This document shows, in pieces, positions 9,420 to 18,107 of a stretch of DNA of 19,129 nt; the first letter of the stretch is position 1; each line of letters begins with the position of its first letter. The notes beneath the pieces were generated by a model. The model was not told the DNA's origin. It saw only the letters and a program-made list of their open reading frames with translations, and made no database searches. The translations under genes and the position numbers were made by a program. This stretch comes from a virus. The DNA lies in the UHGV virus genome UHGV-0124847, one strand, 5' to 3'.

Positions 9420-9809
9420 TTAGTCAGCGAAGGTTAAGACGAGAATTACCTTAATGATGTCTGCTACAACAGACACGGCCATAGATAAACCAAAGACGAT
9501 CCAAGCCATAGAGATGTCTTCACTACCATCGTATAGAGTTCCGTAATCACTGGTGTAAGGCGTAAATGTCGCGCCTTGATACAACAGGTATAAGCTTGAA
9601 CCATAGAGGATAAATGCAGATATCCCTTGTATTGCTATGATCACTAGAATCATGAAACGAGCTGATCTATGCGCCCAAGCCTGGCTTATTTTTTCTGATA
9701 GAGATTTCGCAATAAAAGCATGCGCTAAGCCGTAAATTGTCGAGATTGCCAACATCCCAAAAAAGCTTGCTATAGCGGTTCCAACCATAATCGCCCCTTG
9801 CGTGATCAA
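9420..9809 (-). CDS. Small integral membrane protein (129 aa, three predicted TM helices) co-transcribed with cI
   Basis: ORF start overlaps the cI stop (ATGA-type overlap). Three long hydrophobic segments. Occupies the position of rexA/rexB in lambda; no similarity to RexB in my reading. Confidence 0.65.
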   Translation of the reverse strand: MITQGAIMVGTAIASFFGMLAISTIYGLAHAFIAKSLSEKISQAWAHRSARFMILVIIAIQGISAFILYGSSLYLLYQGATFTPYTSDYGTLYDGSEDISMAWIVFGLSMAVSVVADIIKVILVLTFAD

Positions 9810-10522
9810 ACCAGCCTTAGTTTTGTCTCAATTGCAACGCCTATAATCTTGCAGTTTCCATTGATTGGCACGAGAGGCCATGCAGGATTAAGTCCCTTGA
9901 GGTATTTATTTCCGCCGTCGATTATCAGCTTCTTGAATGTTGCTTCGTTAGAGTCAGAAAGTTTTGCTATGACCAAGCTGCCGTTGATCGCCTCCCTTCC
10001 GGTATCGAAAAGAACGAATGTTCCCTCTGGAATGCTTAACCCAACCGGTGCCGTCATTGAATCACCTTCCACTTTAAGCCAAAACGCATTACCTTGAATA
10101 TGCGCGTCAGACTCAAGCCAAACATCTATGTCTTTAATGGTGTATGGTTCGCATGCTTCACACCACGAGCCAGCCTGGATACTGCTTAACACCGGATACC
10201 TCTTTCCTGCTCTGTATTCCCCTGCATACCTTACGTTGGCATCGCTCTTAAGGCTTTCTGCCTGTTCTGCAACCTTGGCAGCAATTGACTGGCTAAAATC
10301 AGCAATTGAGACTTGCAACAATCGTGCAAAACCAGATGCAACCTCAACGTTTAGCGCGTTTCTGCCATTAAGATAATGCCCTACCGCTCCTTGGGTGATA
10401 CCCAGTTCATCAGCGATTGAGTATTGGGTTATTCCCAATTCTTTCTTTTTTGACTCATACAAAGCCTTAAGCCGCTTAGCGTCTTCGAGCTGTTCTGTCG
10501 TCAGTGATTTTTTATTTTCCAT
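9806..10522 (-). CDS. cI: CI-type prophage repressor (HTH plus LexA-like S24 autocleavage domain)
   Basis: 238-aa ORF. N-terminal HTH (LGITQYSIADELGITQGAVGHYLNG) follows the lambda CI pattern; C-terminal S24 peptidase motifs (GDSM...FKKL). Divergent from cro across the operator region. Confidence 0.9.
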   Translation of the reverse strand: MENKKSLTTEQLEDAKRLKALYESKKKELGITQYSIADELGITQGAVGHYLNGRNALNVEVASGFARLLQVSIADFSQSIAAKVAEQAESLKSDANVRYAGEYRAGKRYPVLSSIQAGSWCEACEPYTIKDIDVWLESDAHIQGNAFWLKVEGDSMTAPVGLSIPEGTFVLFDTGREAINGSLVIAKLSDSNEATFKKLIIDGGNKYLKGLNPAWPLVPINGNCKIIGVAIETKLRLV

Positions 10523-11406: not shown

Positions 11407-12214
11407 GTTAGCTGATTACAGGCCTCAACTGGAGGTCGTGGAGCATCGCGTGGCAGATACCGAAGATGGTTTCATGCGCGTTGCTAACGAGATTACCGAC
11501 GGTCTGCTGATGGCTGATTTAACCGTCCGGCAGTTGAAGGTGATGCTCGCTATCATGCGCAAGACATACGGATTCAATAAGCCGATGGATCGACTCACAA
11601 ACACGCAGATAGCAGCCATGACAGGTATTCATCACACTCATGTTTGCGCTGCCAAGCGCCAGCTTATTGAGCGTAAATTCCTCATTGCTGATGGCGTGAA
11701 AATCGGAGTGAACAAGGTGGTTTCGCAGTGGATTAGCCAGGACAGCTTAACATTAGCTAAAACAGCTAATAAAACATTAGCCAAGTCGGCTAATGGGTAT
11801 AAGCCAAGTCAGCTAAACACAAAAGACAATATACAAAAGACAATAAATACAAATACCCCCTTACCCCCTAACGGGGGTGGCGATGGGCAGGTTAAACCTG
11901 AACGTCGCAAGGCGGAACGAATCGACTACGAATCCTTCCTGAACGCCTACAACACCGAAGTCGGTGACAGACTGCCACACGCTGTTGCGGTCAACGAGAA
12001 ACGCAAACGCCGCCTGAAGAAAATCATCCCGCAACTGAAAACGCCAAACGTGGACGGTTTCAGAGCGTATGTCAGGGCGTTTGTGCATCAGGCCAAGCCG
12101 TTTTACTTCGGAGACAACGACACGGGCTGGACGGCTGATTTTGATTACCTGCTGAGAGAAGACTCGTTAACGGGAGTTCGGGAAGGGAAGTTTGCAGACA
12201 GGGGGATTGCATGA
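11393..12214 (+). CDS. O: Replication initiator (phage O-like, replisome-organizer N-terminal domain)
   Basis: 273-aa ORF. N-terminal region ([55 protein letters not shown]) is typical of phage replication protein O N-terminal DNA-binding domains. The coding sequence contains an iteron array. Confidence 0.85.
11733..11880. other. Putative replication origin inside the initiator gene: dyad iterons, A-rich tract, GC palindrome
   Basis: Repeated about 17-bp dyads: TTAGCT-aaaac-AGCTAA (11753..11769), TTAGCC-aagtc-GGCTAA (11777..11793), taAGCC-aagtc-AGCTAA (11800..11816) at 23-24 bp spacing. Then an A-rich stretch (11817..11860) and CCCCCttaccccctaacGGGGG. Confidence 0.6.
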
Positions 12215-13587
12215 GACAGGATATCGAAGCGAGCGTTATCGGTGGCCTGCTGATTGGTGGATTAACTCCAACTGCCAGCGACGTTCTGGCAACGCTGGAG
12301 CCGGAAGCGTTTTCAATTCCGCTCTACAGGAAAGCCTTCGAGGTTATCCGCAAGCAGGCGAGAAACAGAAACCTAATCGATGCGCTGATGGTTGCCGAGG
12401 CGTGCGGAGAGGAGCATTTCACCTCAATCCTGATGACCAGCAAAAACTGCCCGAGTGCCGCAAACCTGAAGGGATATGCCGGAATGGTCGCGGATAACTA
12501 TCACCGCCGTCTGGTGCTGGAAATCATGGATGAAATGCGTGAACCAATTCAGAGCGGAACCATCGACGTATCGAGTCAGGCGATGGATGAACTTGTAAAG
12601 CGTCTTTCAGTCATCAGAAAGCCACGTGACGAGGTAAAACCTGTACGGTTAGGGGAAATCATCACCGACTACACTGACACGCTTGACAGGCGTCTGAGGA
12701 ACGGAGAAGAGTCAGATACCCTGAAGACCGGAATCGAAGAACTTGATGCCATCACCGGAGGGATGAACGCAGAAGACCTGGTGATTATCGCCGCTCGTCC
12801 TGGTATGGGGAAAACCGAACTGGCGCTGAAGATTGCCGAAGGTGTGGCAAGCCGCGTTATTCCTGGTTCTGACGTCCGGCGCGGGGTATTGATTTTCTCA
12901 ATGGAAATGAGCGCATTGCAGATTGCAGAGCGAAGCATTGCCAACGCCGGGAGGATGTCGGTTAGCGTACTGCGAAATCCTGCATCGATGGATGACGAGG
13001 GCTGGGCACGTGTTGCTAACGGCATGAGTCAGCTTGCAGATTTGGATGTATGGGTAGTCGATGCTTCGCGGTTATCGGTCGAAGAAATACGCTCAATCGC
13101 AGAACGGCATAAGCAGGAAAATCCAAACCTGTCACTCATCATGGCGGATTATCTTGGCCTGATTGAGAAGCCGAAAGCAGACCGCAACGACCTCGCAATT
13201 GCTCACATCTCCAGAAGCCTGAAGGCGATGGCGAAAGACCTGAAAACACCGGTTATCTCCCTGAGTCAGCTTTCGCGCGATGTTGAGAAGCGACCAAACA
13301 AACGCCCGACAAACGCAGATTTGCGTGATTCAGGAAGCATTGAACAGGACGCAGACTCAATCATCATGCTCTATCGGGAAGCGGTATATGATGAGAACAG
13401 TAGCGCCGCGCCATTTGCTGAAATCATCGTGACGAAAAACCGTTTTGGCTCGCTTGGTACAGTTTACCAGCGGTTCTGCAACGGACACTTTGTTGCATGT
13501 GACCAGGATGAAGCCAGACAGATTTGCACAGCATCAAATGCACCTGCTGCGCGTGGCAGACGATATGCACAAGGGGCTGACGTATGA
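12211..13587 (+). CDS. Replicative DNA helicase, DnaB family
   Basis: 458-aa ORF with Walker A ([15 protein letters not shown]), Walker B-like ([10 protein letters not shown]) and a DnaB C-terminal region ([17 protein letters not shown]...[20 protein letters not shown]). Start overlaps the O stop. Confidence 0.9.
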
Positions 13588-13664
13588 CCATCTACATCAC
13601 TGAGCTAATAACAGGCCTGCTGGTAATCGCAGGCCTTTTTATTTGGGGGAGAGGGAAGTCATGA
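13584..13664 (+). CDS. Possible 26-aa hydrophobic micropeptide ([26 protein letters not shown])
   Basis: ATG overlaps the helicase stop (GTATGA) and its stop overlaps the ninB ATG (TCATGA). Single hydrophobic helix. The same span forms a terminator hairpin, so coding status is uncertain. Confidence 0.3.
13613..13645 (+). terminator. Intrinsic terminator-like hairpin between the helicase and ninB
   Basis: AGGCCTGC-tggtaatc-GCAGGCCT perfect 8-bp stem followed by TTTTTATTT. Confidence 0.5.
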
Positions 13665-14101
13665 AAAAACTAACCTTTGAAATTCGATCTCCAGCACATC
13701 AGAAAAACGCTATTCACGCAGTACAGCAAATTCTTCCAGACCCAACCAAACCAATCGTAGTAACCATTCAGGAACGCAACCGCAGCTTAGACCAAAACCG
13801 AAAGCTTTGGGCTTGCCTTGGTGACGTCTCTCGTCAGGTTGAATGGCATGGTCGCTGGCTGGATGCAGAAAGCTGGAAGTGTGTGTTTACCGCAGCATTA
13901 AAGCAGCAGGACGTTGTTCCTAACCTTGCCGGGAATGGCTTTGTGGTAATAGGCCAGTCAACCAGCAGGATGCGTGTAAGCGAATTTGCGGAGCTATTAG
14001 AGCTTATACAGGCATTCGGTACAGAGCGTGGCGTTAAGTGGTCAGACGAAGCGCGACTGGCTCTGGAGTGGAAAGCGAGATGGGGAGACAGGGCTGCATG
14101 A
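13661..14101 (+). CDS. ninB: NinB (Orf-family recombination mediator)
   Basis: The protein from [68 protein letters not shown] matches lambda NinB as I recall it. The track ORF starts at an upstream TTG; the ATG at 13661 is preferred. Confidence 0.9.
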   Translation: MKKLTFEIRSPAHQKNAIHAVQQILPDPTKPIVVTIQERNRSLDQNRKLWACLGDVSRQVEWHGRWLDAESWKCVFTAALKQQDVVPNLAGNGFVVIGQSTSRMRVSEFAELLELIQAFGTERGVKWSDEARLALEWKARWGDRAA

Positions 14102-14970
14102 TAAATGTCGTTAGTTTCTCCGGTGGCAGGACGTCAGCATATTTGCTCTGGCTAATGGAGCAAAAGCGTCGGGCAGGTAAAGACGTGCATTACGTTTTCA
14201 TGGATACAGGTTGTGAACATCCAATGACATATCGGTTTGTCAGGGAAGTTGTGAAGTTCTGGGATATACCGCTCACCGTATTGCAGGTTGATATCAACCC
14301 GGAGCTTGGACAGCCAAATGGTTATACGGTATGGGAACCAAAGGATATTCAGACGCGAATGCCTGTTCTGAAGCCATTTATCGATATGGTAAAGAAATAT
14401 GGCACTCCATACGTCGGCGGCGCGTTCTGCACTGACAGATTAAAACTCGTTCCCTTCACCAAATACTGTAATGACCATTTCGGGCGAGGGAATTACACCA
14501 CGTGGATTGGCATCAGAGCTGATGAACCGAAGCGGCTAAAGCCAAAGCCTGGAATCAGATATCTTGCTGAACTGTCAGACTTTGAGAAGGAAGATATCCT
14601 CGCATGGTGGAAGCAACAACCATTCGATTTGCAAATACCGGAACATCTCGGTAACTGCATATTCTGCATTAAAAAATCAACGCAAAAAATCGGACTTGCC
14701 TGCAAAGATGAGGAGGGATTGCAGCGTGTTTTTAATGAGGTCATCACGGGATCCCATGTGCGTGACGGACATCGGGAAACGCCAAAGGAGATTATGTACC
14801 GAGGAAGAATGTCGCTGGACGGTATCGCGAAAATGTATTCAGAAAATGATTATCAAGCCCTGTATCAGGACATGGTACGAGCTAAAAGATTCGATACCGG
14901 CTCTTGTTCTGAGTCATGCGAAATATTTGGAGGGCAGCTTGATTTCGACTTCGGGAGGGAAGCTGCATGA
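14098..14970 (+). CDS. ninC: NinC-like protein, PAPS-reductase/PP-loop ATPase superfamily
   Basis: 290 aa from the ATG overlapping the ninB stop. N-terminal PP-loop motif ([12 protein letters not shown]) typical of PAPS reductase-like enzymes. Position after ninB and the 290-aa length match lambda ninC. Confidence 0.75.
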
Positions 14971-15218
14971 TGCGATGTTATCGGTGCGGTGAATGCAAAG
15001 AAGATAACCGCTTCCGACCAAATCAACCTTACTGGAATCGATGGTGTCTCCGGTGTGAAAGAACACCAACAGGGGTGTTACCACTACCGCAGGAAAAGGA
15101 GGACGTGTGGCGAGACAGCGACGAAGTTTCACCGACATCATCTGTGAAAACTGCAAATACCTTCCAACGAAACGCTCCAGAAATAAACGCAAGCCAATCC
15201 CAAAAGAATCTGACGTAA
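14967..15218 (+). CDS. NinD-like small Cys-rich protein (true 3' end uncertain)
   Basis: ORF starts on the ninC stop (ATGATG). CxxC pairs (CYRCGEC, CLRC) suggest a zinc ribbon. The last 113 nt overlap ninE in another frame, so the real protein may be shorter. Confidence 0.45.
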
Positions 15219-15283
15219 AAACCTTCAACTACACGGCTCACCTGTGGGATATCCGGTGGCTAAGACATCGTGCGAGGAAATGA
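15107..15283 (+). CDS. ninE: NinE-like protein
   Basis: Hand-translated 58-aa ORF from GTG after AAGGAGG ([58 protein letters not shown]); resembles lambda NinE as I recall it. Stop overlaps the next start (ATGA). Confidence 0.65.
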
Positions 15284-15627
15284 CAATGGATTATTCACAG
15301 TTAAGTGATTTTGAAATTAACAGAATGGTAGGAGACATAATTTTTAAAGGACTTTGGGCATGTAAACCGGAAACGTCAGGGAATAACACCAACAAATGGT
15401 ATTACGGAAATGCTGATACAACTTTTGAGCCATTAAATCATTTGCCTGACTACTGCAATGATCCGAGCGCTTCATGGCCGATTATTGAGAAATACAGGAT
15501 TTCTATCTTAGACCAGTTAACTGAATGGTGTGTGGATGCAAAAGGCGTAAGCCCAATATTTGATACCAGACCTCTCCGCGCCGCCATGATTGTCTTTCTC
15601 CTGATGCAGGAGGCCAATAATGCTTAG
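15280..15627 (+). CDS. Hypothetical nin-region protein (115 aa from MTMDYSQ)
   Basis: ORF with ATGA overlap to the ninE stop. The track ORF extends upstream to a GTG at 15244, but that start lies inside ninE. Confidence 0.55.
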
Positions 15628-15796
15628 CCCATCCCAATCCCTTCAATACCAGAAAGAAAGCGTCGAGCGGGCTTTAACGTGCGCTAACTGCGGTCAGAAG
15701 CTGCATGTGCTGGAAGTTCACATGTGTGAGCACTGCTGCGCAGAACTGATGAGCGATCCGAATAGCTCAATGCACGAGGAAGAAGACGATGAATGA
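15620..15796 (+). CDS. ninF: NinF-like small Cys-rich protein
   Basis: Hand-translated 58-aa ORF ([58 protein letters not shown]) with two CxxC motifs and an acidic tail; resembles lambda NinF as I recall it. Confidence 0.6.
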
Positions 15797-16511
15797 GTTA
15801 ATAAATGGCAATGCCATCAAAATGACAAGCATTGAAATCGCTGAGTTGGTTGGTAAGCGTCATGACAATGTGAAACGTACCATCGAAACGCTGGCTAAAA
15901 ATGGTGTTATCCGGCTTCCTCAAATTGAGGTTTCCGAAAGAATCAATAACTTAGGGTTCAATGTTCAGTACGAGCATTACGTTTTCGAAGGCGAACAAGG
16001 TAAGCGAGACAGTATTGTCGTTGTTGCCCAGTTGTCGCCGGAATTCACCGCTCGCCTTGTTGACCGCTGGCGAGAGCTTGAAGAAGCTGCGGTTAATATC
16101 CCCAAAACGCTACCAGAAGCGTTGCGCCTTGCTGCTGATCTTGCTGAGCAGAAAATGCAACTGGAAAACCAGCTCGCAATTGCCGCACCTAAAGTTGAGT
16201 TTGCCGATCGCGTTGGCGAGGCCAGCGGAATTTTGATTGGAAACTTTGCAAAGGTTGTCGGTATTGGTCCAAACAAACTGTTTGCGTGGATGCGCGATCA
16301 CAAAATCCTTATTGCTTCAGGTTCCCGGCGCAATGTGCCAATGCAGGAATATATGGATCGCGGCTATTTCACAGTGAAAGAAACAGCGGTCAACACAAAT
16401 CACGGAATACAGATATCGTTCACCACAAAAATCACCGGGCGTGGTCAACAGTGGCTGACCAGAAAGCTGCTCGATAACGGAATGCTGAAAGTAACAGGTG
16501 AGGCTGCTTAA
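15789..16511 (+). CDS. Phage antirepressor-like regulator (Rha-type N-terminal domain plus KilA-C/ANT-like C-terminal domain)
   Basis: 240-aa ORF. N-terminus (IKMTSIEIAELVGKRHDNVKRTIETL) fits Rha/ORF6N-type phage regulatory domains; the C-terminal half resembles KilA-C antirepressor domains. Inserted between ninF and the ybcO-like gene. Confidence 0.7.
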   Translation: MNELINGNAIKMTSIEIAELVGKRHDNVKRTIETLAKNGVIRLPQIEVSERINNLGFNVQYEHYVFEGEQGKRDSIVVVAQLSPEFTARLVDRWRELEEAAVNIPKTLPEALRLAADLAEQKMQLENQLAIAAPKVEFADRVGEASGILIGNFAKVVGIGPNKLFAWMRDHKILIASGSRRNVPMQEYMDRGYFTVKETAVNTNHGIQISFTTKITGRGQQWLTRKLLDNGMLKVTGEAA

Positions 16512-16801
16512 TGGCTAATCTACGCAAAGAAGCACGCGGCAGAGAATGCCAGGTACGTATTTACGGCGTATGCAATGGCAACCCTGAAACTACAGTTCTG
16601 GCACATTATCGGATGGCTGGAATTTGCGGAACGGGAATGAAGCCTGACGACCTGATCGGCGCATGGGCTTGTAGCGCGTGTCACGATGAAATCGACCGAC
16701 GCACCCATAATCTCGACAACAAAGACGCCAGACTTTACCACCTCGAAGGCGTGATCAGGACGCAGGCGATACTGCTGAAGGAGGGGAAGATTAAGTCATG
16801 A
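16511..16801 (+). CDS. YbcO-like (DUF1364) putative zinc-binding nuclease
   Basis: 96-aa ORF with Cys/His clusters (CQVRIYGVCNG, CSACHDEID), immediately upstream of rusA as in the DLP12 prophage arrangement. Confidence 0.7.
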   Translation: MANLRKEARGRECQVRIYGVCNGNPETTVLAHYRMAGICGTGMKPDDLIGAWACSACHDEIDRRTHNLDNKDARLYHLEGVIRTQAILLKEGKIKS

Positions 16802-17160
16802 ACGAATATCAGTTTGTGCTTCCATACCCGCCGTCGGTGAACACCTACTGGCGAAGACGGGGAAGCCAATACTACATCAGCGATAAAGGCCAGAAATACC
16901 GAAAAGACGTTCAGCAAATCATCCGCCAACTCAAGTTAGACATTTTCACCAAATCACGACTCCGCATCAAAGTCATCGCAGACGTTCCAGACTCCCGCCG
17001 CCGCGACCTCGACAACATCCTGAAAGGTTTACTCGATTCCCTTATCCACGCCGGATTTGCGGAAGACGACGAGCAATTCGATGACATTCGCGTAATTCGT
17101 GGTGTGAAAGTACCAGGCGGACGGCTTGGAATAAAAATCACCGAACTGGAGAACGCATGA
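16798..17160 (+). CDS. rusA: RusA Holliday-junction resolvase
   Basis: 120-aa ORF with the conserved RusA core (DVPDSRRRDLDNILKGLLDSLIHAGF...DD). Confidence 0.9.
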   Translation: MNEYQFVLPYPPSVNTYWRRRGSQYYISDKGQKYRKDVQQIIRQLKLDIFTKSRLRIKVIADVPDSRRRDLDNILKGLLDSLIHAGFAEDDEQFDDIRVIRGVKVPGGRLGIKITELENA

Positions 17161-17345
17161 ACGCCACAATTCAAACGATACCAGAGCTTCTTATCCAGAC
17201 ACGAGGCAATCAGACCGAAGTGGCAAGGATGCTTTCCTGCGCAAGAGGAACAGTGCTCAAGTACAACCGAGACAGCAAAGGCGAGCGTCACGCAATAGTT
17301 AACGGCGTCCTGATGGTCAAACAGGGCAAGAGGGGAAGACGATGA
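17157..17345 (+). CDS. ninH: NinH-like small HTH protein
   Basis: 62-aa ORF whose YGNQTEVARxLxCxRGTVxKY...HAIVNxVLMV region parallels lambda NinH. Confidence 0.75.
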   Translation: MNATIQTIPELLIQTRGNQTEVARMLSCARGTVLKYNRDSKGERHAIVNGVLMVKQGKRGRR

Positions 17346-17965
17346 GACTCGAAAGCGTAGCTAAATTTCATTCGCCAAAAAGCCCAATGATGAGCGACTC
17401 ACCACGGGCTACGGCTTCTGACTCTCTTTCCGGTACTGATGTGATGGCTGCTATGGGGATGGCGCAATCACAAGCCGGATTCGGTATGGCTGCATTCTGT
17501 GGTAAGCACGAACTCAGCCAGAACGACAAACAAAAGGCTATCAACTATCTGAAGCAATTTGCACACAAGGTATCGGGGAAATACCGTGGTGTGGCAAAGC
17601 TCGAAGGAAATACTAAGGCAAAGGTACTGCAAGTGCTCGCAACATTCGCTTATGCGGATTATTGCCGTAGTGCCGCTACGCCGGGCGCAAGATGCAGAGA
17701 TTGCCACGGTACAGGCCGTGCGGTTGATATAGCCAAAACAGAGCAGTGGGGGAGAGTTGTCGAGAAAGAGTGCGGAAGATGCAAAGGCGTCGGCTATTCA
17801 AGGATGCCAGCAAGCGCAGCATATCGCGCTGTGACGATGCTAATCCCAAACCTTACTCAACCCACCTGGTCACGCACTGTTAAGCCGCTGTATGACGCTC
17901 TGGTGGTGCAATGCCACAAAGAAGAGTCAATCGCAGACAGCATTTTGAATACGGTCACACGTTAG
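17342..17965 (+). CDS. Q: Q late-gene antiterminator (lambda type)
   Basis: 207-aa ORF essentially colinear with lambda Q as I recall it (MRLESVAKFHSPKSPMMSDSPRATASDSLSGTDV...), including the Cys-rich zinc region (CRDCHGTGR...CGRCKGVGY). Confidence 0.9.
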   Translation: MRLESVAKFHSPKSPMMSDSPRATASDSLSGTDVMAAMGMAQSQAGFGMAAFCGKHELSQNDKQKAINYLKQFAHKVSGKYRGVAKLEGNTKAKVLQVLATFAYADYCRSAATPGARCRDCHGTGRAVDIAKTEQWGRVVEKECGRCKGVGYSRMPASAAYRAVTMLIPNLTQPTWSRTVKPLYDALVVQCHKEESIADSILNTVTR

Positions 17966-18007
17966 CAGCATGATTGCCACGGATGGCAACATATTAACGG
18001 CATGATA

Positions 18008-18036
18008 TTGACTTATTGAATAAAGTTGGGTAAATT
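18008..18036 (+). promoter_or_regulatory. pR' late promoter with the overlapping Q-binding (qut) region
   Basis: -35 TTGACT (18008..18013), 17-bp spacer, -10 TAAATT (18031..18036). Promoter region matches lambda pR' as I recall it. Confidence 0.7.
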
Positions 18037-18071
18037 TGACTCAACGATGGATAAATGCACTCGTTAAATAA

Positions 18072-18107
18072 AGCCCTGAGTTAATAGCTCGGGGCTTTTT
18101 GCGTTTT
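18072..18107 (+). terminator. Intrinsic terminator close to pR' (tR'-like)
   Basis: AGCCCTGAG-ttaatag-CTCGGGGCT (9-bp stem, one G.U) followed by TTTTTGCGTTTT, about 30-60 nt after the predicted pR' start. Confidence 0.65.

Follow-up and report, generated by a model that had tools for sequence, protein, structure and literature searches.

A covarying palindrome inside roi as a candidate operator of a Rha-type regulator in lambdoid phages

The open reading frame at 15789-16511 (+) of the window, by which we mean the whole 19,129-nucleotide stretch of the virus genome UHGV-0124847 analysed here, corresponds to roi, a lambdoid phage gene that has been described before and whose product is a DNA-binding regulator. 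Within its own coding sequence lies a perfect palindrome whose two arms covary among roi alleles and whose bases correspond to residues of the predicted recognition helix, and a match to the IHF core consensus stands beside it at a spacing shared with the HK022 and HK97 alleles. The explanation that we favour, and that we consider probable on the basis of sequence comparison, is that a Roi dimer would bind this intragenic dyad through its N-terminal domain, with the aid of IHF, and that the KilAC domain would serve as an effector module.

The ORF list and the Pfam assignments of the adjacent genes agree with the sequence-only reading in placing a 240-aa reading frame on the + strand between ninF and a ybcO-like gene and in overlapping it with both neighbours:

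15789..16511, + strand: roi coding sequence (ATG start, 240 aa plus stop; from the ORF list)
15620..15796, + strand: ninF, the upstream neighbour (Pfam NinF, E 1.1e-10)
16511..16801, + strand: YbcO/DUF1364 gene, the downstream neighbour (Pfam YbcO, E 1.8e-44), counterpart of HK97 gp66

At its 5' end, roi overlaps the ninF stop by 8 nt (ATGAATGA, 15789-15796, + strand), which suggests translational coupling in the PR operon, and at its 3' end the stop codon shares 1 nt with the start of the YbcO-family gene (TAATG, 16511). Phage N7 encodes an identical protein (100%), listed there as 'DNA-binding protein'. Compared with HK620 roi, the window gene is 98.5% identical in DNA and 99–100% identical in protein, and genes annotated as 'roi: DNA-binding protein Roi' in HK620, Stx2-converting phage 86, CUS-3, PA28, and others show 98.5–98.8% DNA identity. 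Roi of HK022, the phage from which the gene was originally defined, is 88% identical (241 vs 240 aa, E 4e-159). The gene is carried under the name roi, and in the same gene order, by HK022, HK97, HK620, and many Stx phages. Of 5426 complete E. coli genomes, 1110 (about a fifth) carry it, as do 220 phage records, and the Roi protein cluster at the 90% identity level has thousands of members. The finding as originally flagged is already known, since roi has been named since 1996 and an identical protein is present in public phage records; it is an unremarkable and widespread phage gene with an established name.

The window corresponds to the early region, from int to lysis, of an HK620/HK97-type prophage, and its CI repressor is 100% identical to that of HK620. 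According to Pfam, roi is flanked by NinD, NinE, NinX, and NinF upstream and by YbcO, RusA, NinH, and Q downstream, and the order ninF-roi-gp66(ybcO)-rusA-ninH-Q is common to the window, HK022, HK97, and HK620. Only three stretches aligned to lambda at the DNA level, namely 13584-15280 (ninB-ninE, 98.8%), 15654-15791 (the 3' part of ninF, 97.1%), and 17332-18065 (Q, 97.1%). These three stretches, together with the absence of both rusA and ybcO from lambda, indicate that roi opens a mosaic replacement block and is not a single-gene insertion. The block roi-ybcO-rusA-ninH (15792-17331, 1.5 kb), with roi first, stands in place of lambda ninG-ninH-ninI, and a separate insertion between ninE and ninF contributes ninX. 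The picture of a regulator simply inserted into an otherwise lambda-like nin region, as drawn by the sequence-only reading, was thus not retained, and its statement that the surrounding nin genes are close to lambda holds for ninB-ninE and the 3' part of ninF but not for rusA, which lambda lacks, or for ninH, which belongs to the replacement block.

No promoter-like site was found on the + strand between 13500 and 18000, and no LexA-box match was found within 13.5–18 kb. A tR2-like terminator lies upstream of roi at 13613-13636. Given this terminator and the lack of a promoter-like site of its own, expression of roi most likely relies on the PR transcript, following read-through mediated by N, a conclusion that draws on lambda biology and on the annotation of HK620. 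The gene would accordingly be expressed as a delayed-early gene in the PR/nin operon of an HK620/HK97/HK022-type lambdoid prophage.

The two-domain architecture proposed earlier, with a Rha-type N-terminus and a KilA-C-like C-terminus, was recovered by domain search, in which both domains passed their Pfam thresholds. The domains and two structural elements that matter for what follows are located as follows:

15822..16085, + strand: Rha-type winged-helix DNA-binding domain, N-terminal (residues 12-99)
16164..16472, + strand: ANT/KilAC domain, C-terminal (residues 126-228; Pfam PF03374)
15861..15899, + strand: predicted recognition helix (residues 25-37, HDNVKRTIETLAK; AF2 helix)
16110..16220, + strand: long interdomain helix (residues 108-144; AF2 secondary structure)

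The Phage_pRha match (PF09669) covered residues 12-99 with E 6.3e-9 and 36.7 bits (gathering threshold 29.9), and the ANT/KilAC match (PF03374) covered profile positions 1-106 of 108 with E 7.7e-33 and 113.5 bits (gathering threshold 25.3). Roi also matched PHROG 63, 'anti-repressor Ant', at E 1e-99. The cutoff of the narrower NCBIfam model TIGR02681 (phage_pRha) was not reached (17.9 vs 45.95 bits), and residues 12-36 alone were matched by it. An AlphaFold2 model built on 72 diverse homologues had a pLDDT of 91.6. Its N-terminal part consists of a strand (11-13), two helices (14-21 and 25-37), and a hairpin wing (45-52 and 58-67); in the model, these elements (11-67) form a winged helix with a predicted helix-turn-helix DNA-binding motif. 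After the wing, helices continue up to residue 101, followed by the long helix 108-144, which may be the dimerisation element of Roi. The KilAC part comprises helices 150-157, 161-170, and 186-190, a hairpin at 194-215, and a helix at 217-229.

Nearly all differences between the window roi and that of HK022/HK97 fall in one stretch of about 140 nt, with near-identical flanks. This stretch contains the recognition-helix codons, a palindrome, and an IHF core:

15846..15985, + strand: allele-specific cassette of about 140 nt (residues 22-65; from DNA alignment and allele comparison)
15918..15930, no strand assigned: perfect palindrome CCTCAA-A-TTGAGG, candidate Roi operator (centre 15924; covariation across 29 alleles)
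15912..15936, no strand assigned: extended dyad, in which outer symmetric positions ±10 to 12 (CGG...CCG) flank the core
15941..15953, + strand: IHF core consensus match AATCAATAACTTA, which fits WATCAANNNNTTR

The palindrome lies in codons 44-48, and its centre is the first base of codon I46. In HK022/HK97, a palindrome of different sequence, CTGCA-T-TGCAG, is found at the same centre nucleotide, with two positions changed on both arms. Across 29 distinct alleles, the centre nucleotide stays the same and the sequence of the palindrome changes.

Elsewhere in the window, the palindrome has matches with 1–2 mismatches only, for example in the O gene (11423-11435). One of them (16188-16200) lies in the conserved KilAC coding part, in a stretch that is also present in HK620, Stx2-86, and E. 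coli DP051. Such extra copies were rejected as Roi sites, because three matches were found against 0.82 expected and three were reached in 7 of 200 shuffles.

Alleles of the Roi N-terminal domain were taken from phage records and from a scan of one genome per bacterial species, and the genera sampled included Yersinia, Shimwellia, Pantoea, Serratia, Proteus, Providencia, Kluyvera, Acinetobacter, Parapusillimonas, and Zavarzinia. A scan of IMG/VR yielded solely 99–100% identical roi copies and thus no allele diversity. Among 30 distinct sequences, the mean perfect arm at the homologous centre was 4.93 nt, and arms of at least 5 nt were present in 21; at 120 neighbouring offsets used as a control, the mean arm was 0.33 nt (maximum 1.10) and at most one sequence reached 5 nt. 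The longest arms were 12 nt (Stx1_499) and 11 nt (a Kluyvera prophage). Arm complementarity was 90–93% at positions 1-5 and fell at positions 7-9, and positions 5 and 6 were almost invariant CC/GG. The outer helix of the dyad was 87.4% paired, with 90%, 93%, and 69% pairing at ±10, 11, and 12, respectively, and four pair types at each of these positions. When covariation was counted over 29 distinct 41-nt segments, 87.7% of the cells were paired, compared with 59.0 ± 2.1 in shuffles (0 of 500 reached the observed value) and 25–45% when the partner was slid; the corresponding covariation scores were 0.643, 0.153, and 0.07–0.16, respectively.

At the protein level, the dyad region is free to vary (PQIE, PALQ, PPMV, PPTE, PQTV, PPLG, APMA, and PPVA), so the constraint acts on the DNA and not on the peptide. 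The palindrome is degenerate in several alleles (phage 2851/WGPS9, L100, L101, L112, L113, and L117), and the dyad is absent from the more distant Rha-domain proteins L119, L120, L122, L123, and L127; it is therefore a feature of the MTSxEIAELV...RDSIxVVAQL subfamily rather than of all Rha proteins.

Compensatory changes that preserve arm complementarity are also what an RNA hairpin in the roi mRNA would leave behind, and an inner stem, an internal loop, and an outer stem would make a plausible RNA shape; such a hairpin could act in pausing, processing, or translation, and any correlation with the helix would then be linkage only. We regard this as extremely improbable, because the dyad has a single-nucleotide centre, its ±1 positions are 90% complementary with two pair types although a hairpin loop could not use them, positions 5 and 6 are nearly fixed, and residue 27 of the protein maps one-to-one to the base at ±4 according to classical side-chain preferences, as described below. 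G.U pairs, moreover, are nearly absent, filling 5 of 261 cells. Their scarcity and the complementary ±1 positions, which a one-base loop could not close, point to a symmetric DNA site.

The IHF core is positioned consistently with respect to this site. Its start is 17 nt from the palindrome centre, and the palindrome ends 10 nt upstream of it. In HK022/HK97, the sequence at the same place is AATCAATGATTTA, which also fits WATCAANNNNTTR and is kept inside the otherwise diverged cassette. The 19-kb window contains one exact match to WATCAANNNNTTR (15941-15953), which is the chance level (0.95 expected), so only its position and conservation are informative. A core at the same offset was present in 10 of the 30 alleles, and in WGPS6 it was found at +20. 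Since the core encodes the conserved peptide I-N-N-L, its conservation is possibly in part a protein-level effect. Palindrome arms of at least 7 nt were seen only among the 19 alleles without an IHF core, a number of alleles too small for a trend to be claimed.

The recognition helix (25-37) was compared with the half-site bases in 29 alleles, and three of its residues tracked the operator in an almost one-to-one manner. Residue 27 corresponds to the base at ±4, with N paired with T (15/15), S with A (5/5), D with G (4/4), and K with C (3/3). At residue 30, R, Q, or L goes with C at ±3 and I or V with G. Residue 34 corresponds to ±2, where R is found with C in 18 of 19 cases and T, A, or K with A in 9 of 9. 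In the window Roi, the tracking residues are N27, R30, and T34. Their spacing (i, i+3, i+7) places them on one helical face, and no base-tracking pattern was detected for residues 23, 24, 26, and 38 in the same 29 alleles. The classical side-chain-to-base preferences are Asn for A, Lys for G, and Asp for C, and the residue 27 mapping agrees with all three when read on the opposite strand.

A helix of sequence DNVKRTIETL is paired with CCTCAA-N-TTGAGG in E. coli, Yersinia, Klebsiella, Sodalis, and Parapusillimonas, and near-variant helices in Acinetobacter (RLIEKL) and Zavarzinia (RTIQTL) accompany the same dyad core. Helix and dyad are about 40–70 nt apart and travel together. Because the alleles share ancestry and the cassette is passed on in one piece, the association between helix and bases could be partly linkage. 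The recognition helix of HK022/HK97 Roi is RHSNVKVSIDRL, compared with RHDNVKRTIETL in the window, and because both the helix and the palindrome differ between these alleles, their DNA specificities are predicted to differ. A literature search that covered sources other than the primary 1996 Roi paper returned no description of the dyad covariation or the residue-to-base match, and both may be new.

To our knowledge, the only experimental work on Roi is that of Clerget and Boccard in 1996 (J Bacteriol 178:4077). That study reportedly assigned a helix-turn-helix motif to Roi and located a Roi site within roi itself, closely linked to an IHF site, and Roi binding is said to be stabilised by IHF. 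Mutants growing on IHF-deficient hosts were reportedly altered in DNA binding. The arrangement of the candidate palindrome and IHF core found here fits this account of Roi binding in its own gene beside an IHF site. Roi is implicated in HK022 lytic growth (PMC3430580), and its reported phenotype in HK022 is an inhibition of lytic growth in IHF-deficient hosts (PMC3430580, PMC4587872).

From these observations, we infer that Roi most likely uses its Rha-type winged-helix domain to bind, in dimeric form, the dyad of about 25 bp centred at 15924 inside roi, with residues 27, 30, and 34 reading half-site positions 4, 3, and 2, respectively. The Roi complex would be stabilised by host IHF sitting on the neighbouring core (15941-15953). 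This would probably feed back negatively on Roi synthesis, obstruct transcription between P and Q, or do both. A complex of Roi and IHF that limits Roi synthesis or action would be the most economical account of the published phenotype: with the loss of IHF, this control would fail and Roi would harm phage growth. The KilAC domain, near-invariant across heteroimmune phages, would then be the effector module of Roi.

A roadblock inside the PR operon would also lower Q expression.

The KilAC domain is common to Roi and P1 Ant1/KilA (Pfam name; PMC9043618), databases call the protein 'anti-repressor Ant', and P1 Ant is an antirepressor acting against C1 (work cited in PMC9043618). The sequence-only reading likewise saw in roi an antirepressor-like gene. 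If Roi were a true antirepressor, its KilAC domain would bind and inactivate CI, either that of the same prophage or that of a co-resident one, in the way that P1 Ant1 acts on C1. Our comparison gave no support for this role, which we consider very improbable. Roi residues 101-240 are 99–100% identical among the window, HK620, HK97, HK022, and Stx2-86, whereas the CI repressors of these five phages are 21–45% identical, except for the identical pair of the window and HK620 (100%), and the N-terminal allele of Roi does not follow CI type either. A KilAC domain that is near-invariant despite divergent CI speaks against an antirepressor dedicated to one repressor and in favour of a conserved target in the host or in a core phage function. 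Moreover, roi would be expressed from PR only once repression has been lifted, and neither a promoter-like site nor a LexA box was found nearby. In some Stx phages, roi is directly preceded by a distinct ant gene, and the published Roi phenotype is the inhibition of lytic growth, not induction (PMC4587872).

Two features of functional antirepressors of the P22 Ant, P1 Ant1, and Gifsy GfoA/GfhA type, namely variation with the targeted repressor and control of their own that permits expression in the repressed prophage (a LexA box, or a dedicated repressor or RNA), were checked in Roi, and neither was found; the roi start codon overlaps the ninF stop. By this analysis, 'antirepressor' appears to be a name carried over from P1 Ant1 via the KilAC domain, by homology only. 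The database label 'anti-repressor Ant' is unsupported, and the missing covariation with CI contradicts it; annotations, and inferences of prophage cross-induction, that build on it need caution.

A conserved target in the host is what near-invariance of the KilAC domain across heteroimmune phages would fit, and one candidate process is the SOS response. The KilAC domains of Listeria AriS and of two homologues inhibit SOS, and pRha+KilAC is listed among the natural KilAC architectures (PMC9043618). Roi could accordingly damp the host SOS response (RecA) through KilAC, as in AriS, and regulate phage genes through its N-terminal domain, acting as a dual-function coordinator of co-resident prophages. 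This seems quite unlikely, because the AriS effect was obtained on overexpression and in a Firmicute, deletion mutants at the native level were wild-type in SOS transcription (PMC9043618), and Roi is only about 30–39% similar to Firmicute KilAC domains.

The KilAC domain could also be a host-toxic, division-blocking module, as in P1 KilA, phi11 Gp07, and CreP, whose level is kept low by DNA binding together with IHF. CreP, a single-KilAC-domain protein, is a CRISPR-repressed toxin that is bacteriostatic and inhibits cell division, and P1 KilA and phi11 Gp07 are named as related KilAC-bearing proteins (bioRxiv 10.1101/2024.01.05.574328). Harm in the absence of IHF is the phenotype of both Roi and Rha (PMC4936722, PMC4587872), and toxicity would be compatible with the autoregulation model of Roi. 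However, CreP and P1 KilA share limited conserved residues only (bioRxiv 10.1101/2024.01.05.574328), roi sits in a repressed operon in the 1110 genomes that have it, and PADLOC found no defence-system match; we therefore judge a toxic module unlikely.

The dyad and the residue-to-base match provide a concrete and cheap handle on DNA recognition by Roi and by a large Rha-type subfamily. The dyad findings also open a way to a question that has stood for 30 years, namely the reason for which Roi renders phage growth IHF-dependent. A broader reading is possible, though we lean against it: helix and operator, joined by the IHF core in about a third of the alleles, would form an exchangeable specificity cassette of about 140 nt with a readable code, swapped like a miniature immunity region, and Roi would act before Q as an obstacle or feedback switch that is specific to the allele and assisted by IHF. 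If this were true, the binding sites of a widespread, poorly understood Rha subfamily would be predictable from sequence.

Among known systems, the closest is HK022 Roi, which is 100% identical to the window protein over residues 101-240, within one residue of it in length, and encoded by a gene with the IHF core at the same position; annotated Roi orthologues of the HK022 gene are found in HK97, HK620, CUS-3, and Stx phages. Rha, the namesake of the N-terminal family (phi80; P22 orf201), shares the Pfam Phage_pRha domain with Roi and likewise blocks phage growth in IHF-deficient hosts (PMC4936722; for Roi, PMC4587872). Unlike Rha, Roi has a KilAC C-terminus and sits in the nin region instead of the late operon. 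P1 KilA is 58% identical over Roi residues 73-234, with a strong match in the C-terminal domain, but its N-terminal domain is KilA-N, whereas that of Roi is Rha-type. AriS resembles Roi in combining a variable N-terminal DNA-binding or regulatory domain with a conserved KilAC C-terminus, and differs from it in its distant sequence, AntA/AntB N-terminal domain, and Firmicute host.

An alignment of roi alleles (A2) revealed a second mosaic segment at residues 99–135 of the encoded protein, in the inter-domain helix, with the variants EAAVNIPKTLPEALRLAADLAEQKMQLENQLAIAAPKVEF and GATAKIPQTFSEALRLAADLEDQKAELEKQLALAAPKVEF being paired with differing N-terminal cassettes across alleles. The Rha-type N-terminal domain of Roi was also found joined to a different, non-KilAC C-terminal domain in a single protein at four loci among the collected sequences of other roi and Rha-domain alleles, where the fusion genes occupy the following positions (in each locus's own coordinates):

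L090, 601–1308: Rha-type fusion gene
L091, 601–1308: Rha-type fusion gene
L092, 601–1308: Rha-type fusion gene
L093, 598–1305: Rha-type fusion gene

These fusion genes carry an intragenic dyad of their own, and their C-terminal domain (approximately 135 aa) gave no Pfam match. In Stx1_499, Stx2_14744, and PPyecE_EH1910, the fusion gene is located in the immunity region, downstream of cro, and not in the nin region; in Stx1_499, it adjoins a small ORF at the cro position. The remaining carrier is a Klebsiella phage.

In the Stx1a phage Stx1_131719 (L084, 601–735), a single nonsense change converts roi codon 45 from CAA to TAA in an otherwise intact frame. The resulting stop falls within the left arm of the palindrome; thus, a single mutation affects the protein and the putative operator together. 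For some O157 Stx2a phages, IS629 insertions in roi have been reported (PMC4587872). A copy of the roi dyad with one mismatch (CCTCAACTGGAGG) was located at 11423–11435 of the window, close to the beginning of O, the replication gene. This copy also occurs in E. coli DP051, whose O gene is the same; statistically, the match is near chance level. The roi gene of phage Gally (E. coli LF82) is 98.3% identical to that of the window, and macrophage-specific antisense transcripts of this phage have been reported to start at Q and reach up to roi (PMC9928086).

The CI repressor (9806–10522, minus strand) is 100% identical to that of phage HK620 over 238 aa, which indicates that the prophage has HK620 immunity. 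The window outside CI is mosaic, with best matches to HK544, HK140, CUS-3, and HK97. Terminator-like and promoter-like elements were located as follows:

13613–13636, plus strand: strong terminator-like hairpin immediately upstream of ninB, at the tR2 position
18008–18036: promoter-like site ahead of the next hairpin
18070–18098, plus strand: strong terminator-like hairpin downstream of Q, corresponding in position to the PR'/tR' short-transcript terminator

The nin region itself differs from that of lambda. In the ninD ORF (14967–15218), TCA replaces the TAA stop codon of lambda ninD, and the ORF is therefore extended to 83 aa (vs 57), overlapping most of ninE. A NinX-family gene (15244–15627; Pfam Phage_P22_NinX, E = 1.8e-16) lies between ninE and ninF, whereas lambda has nothing at this position.
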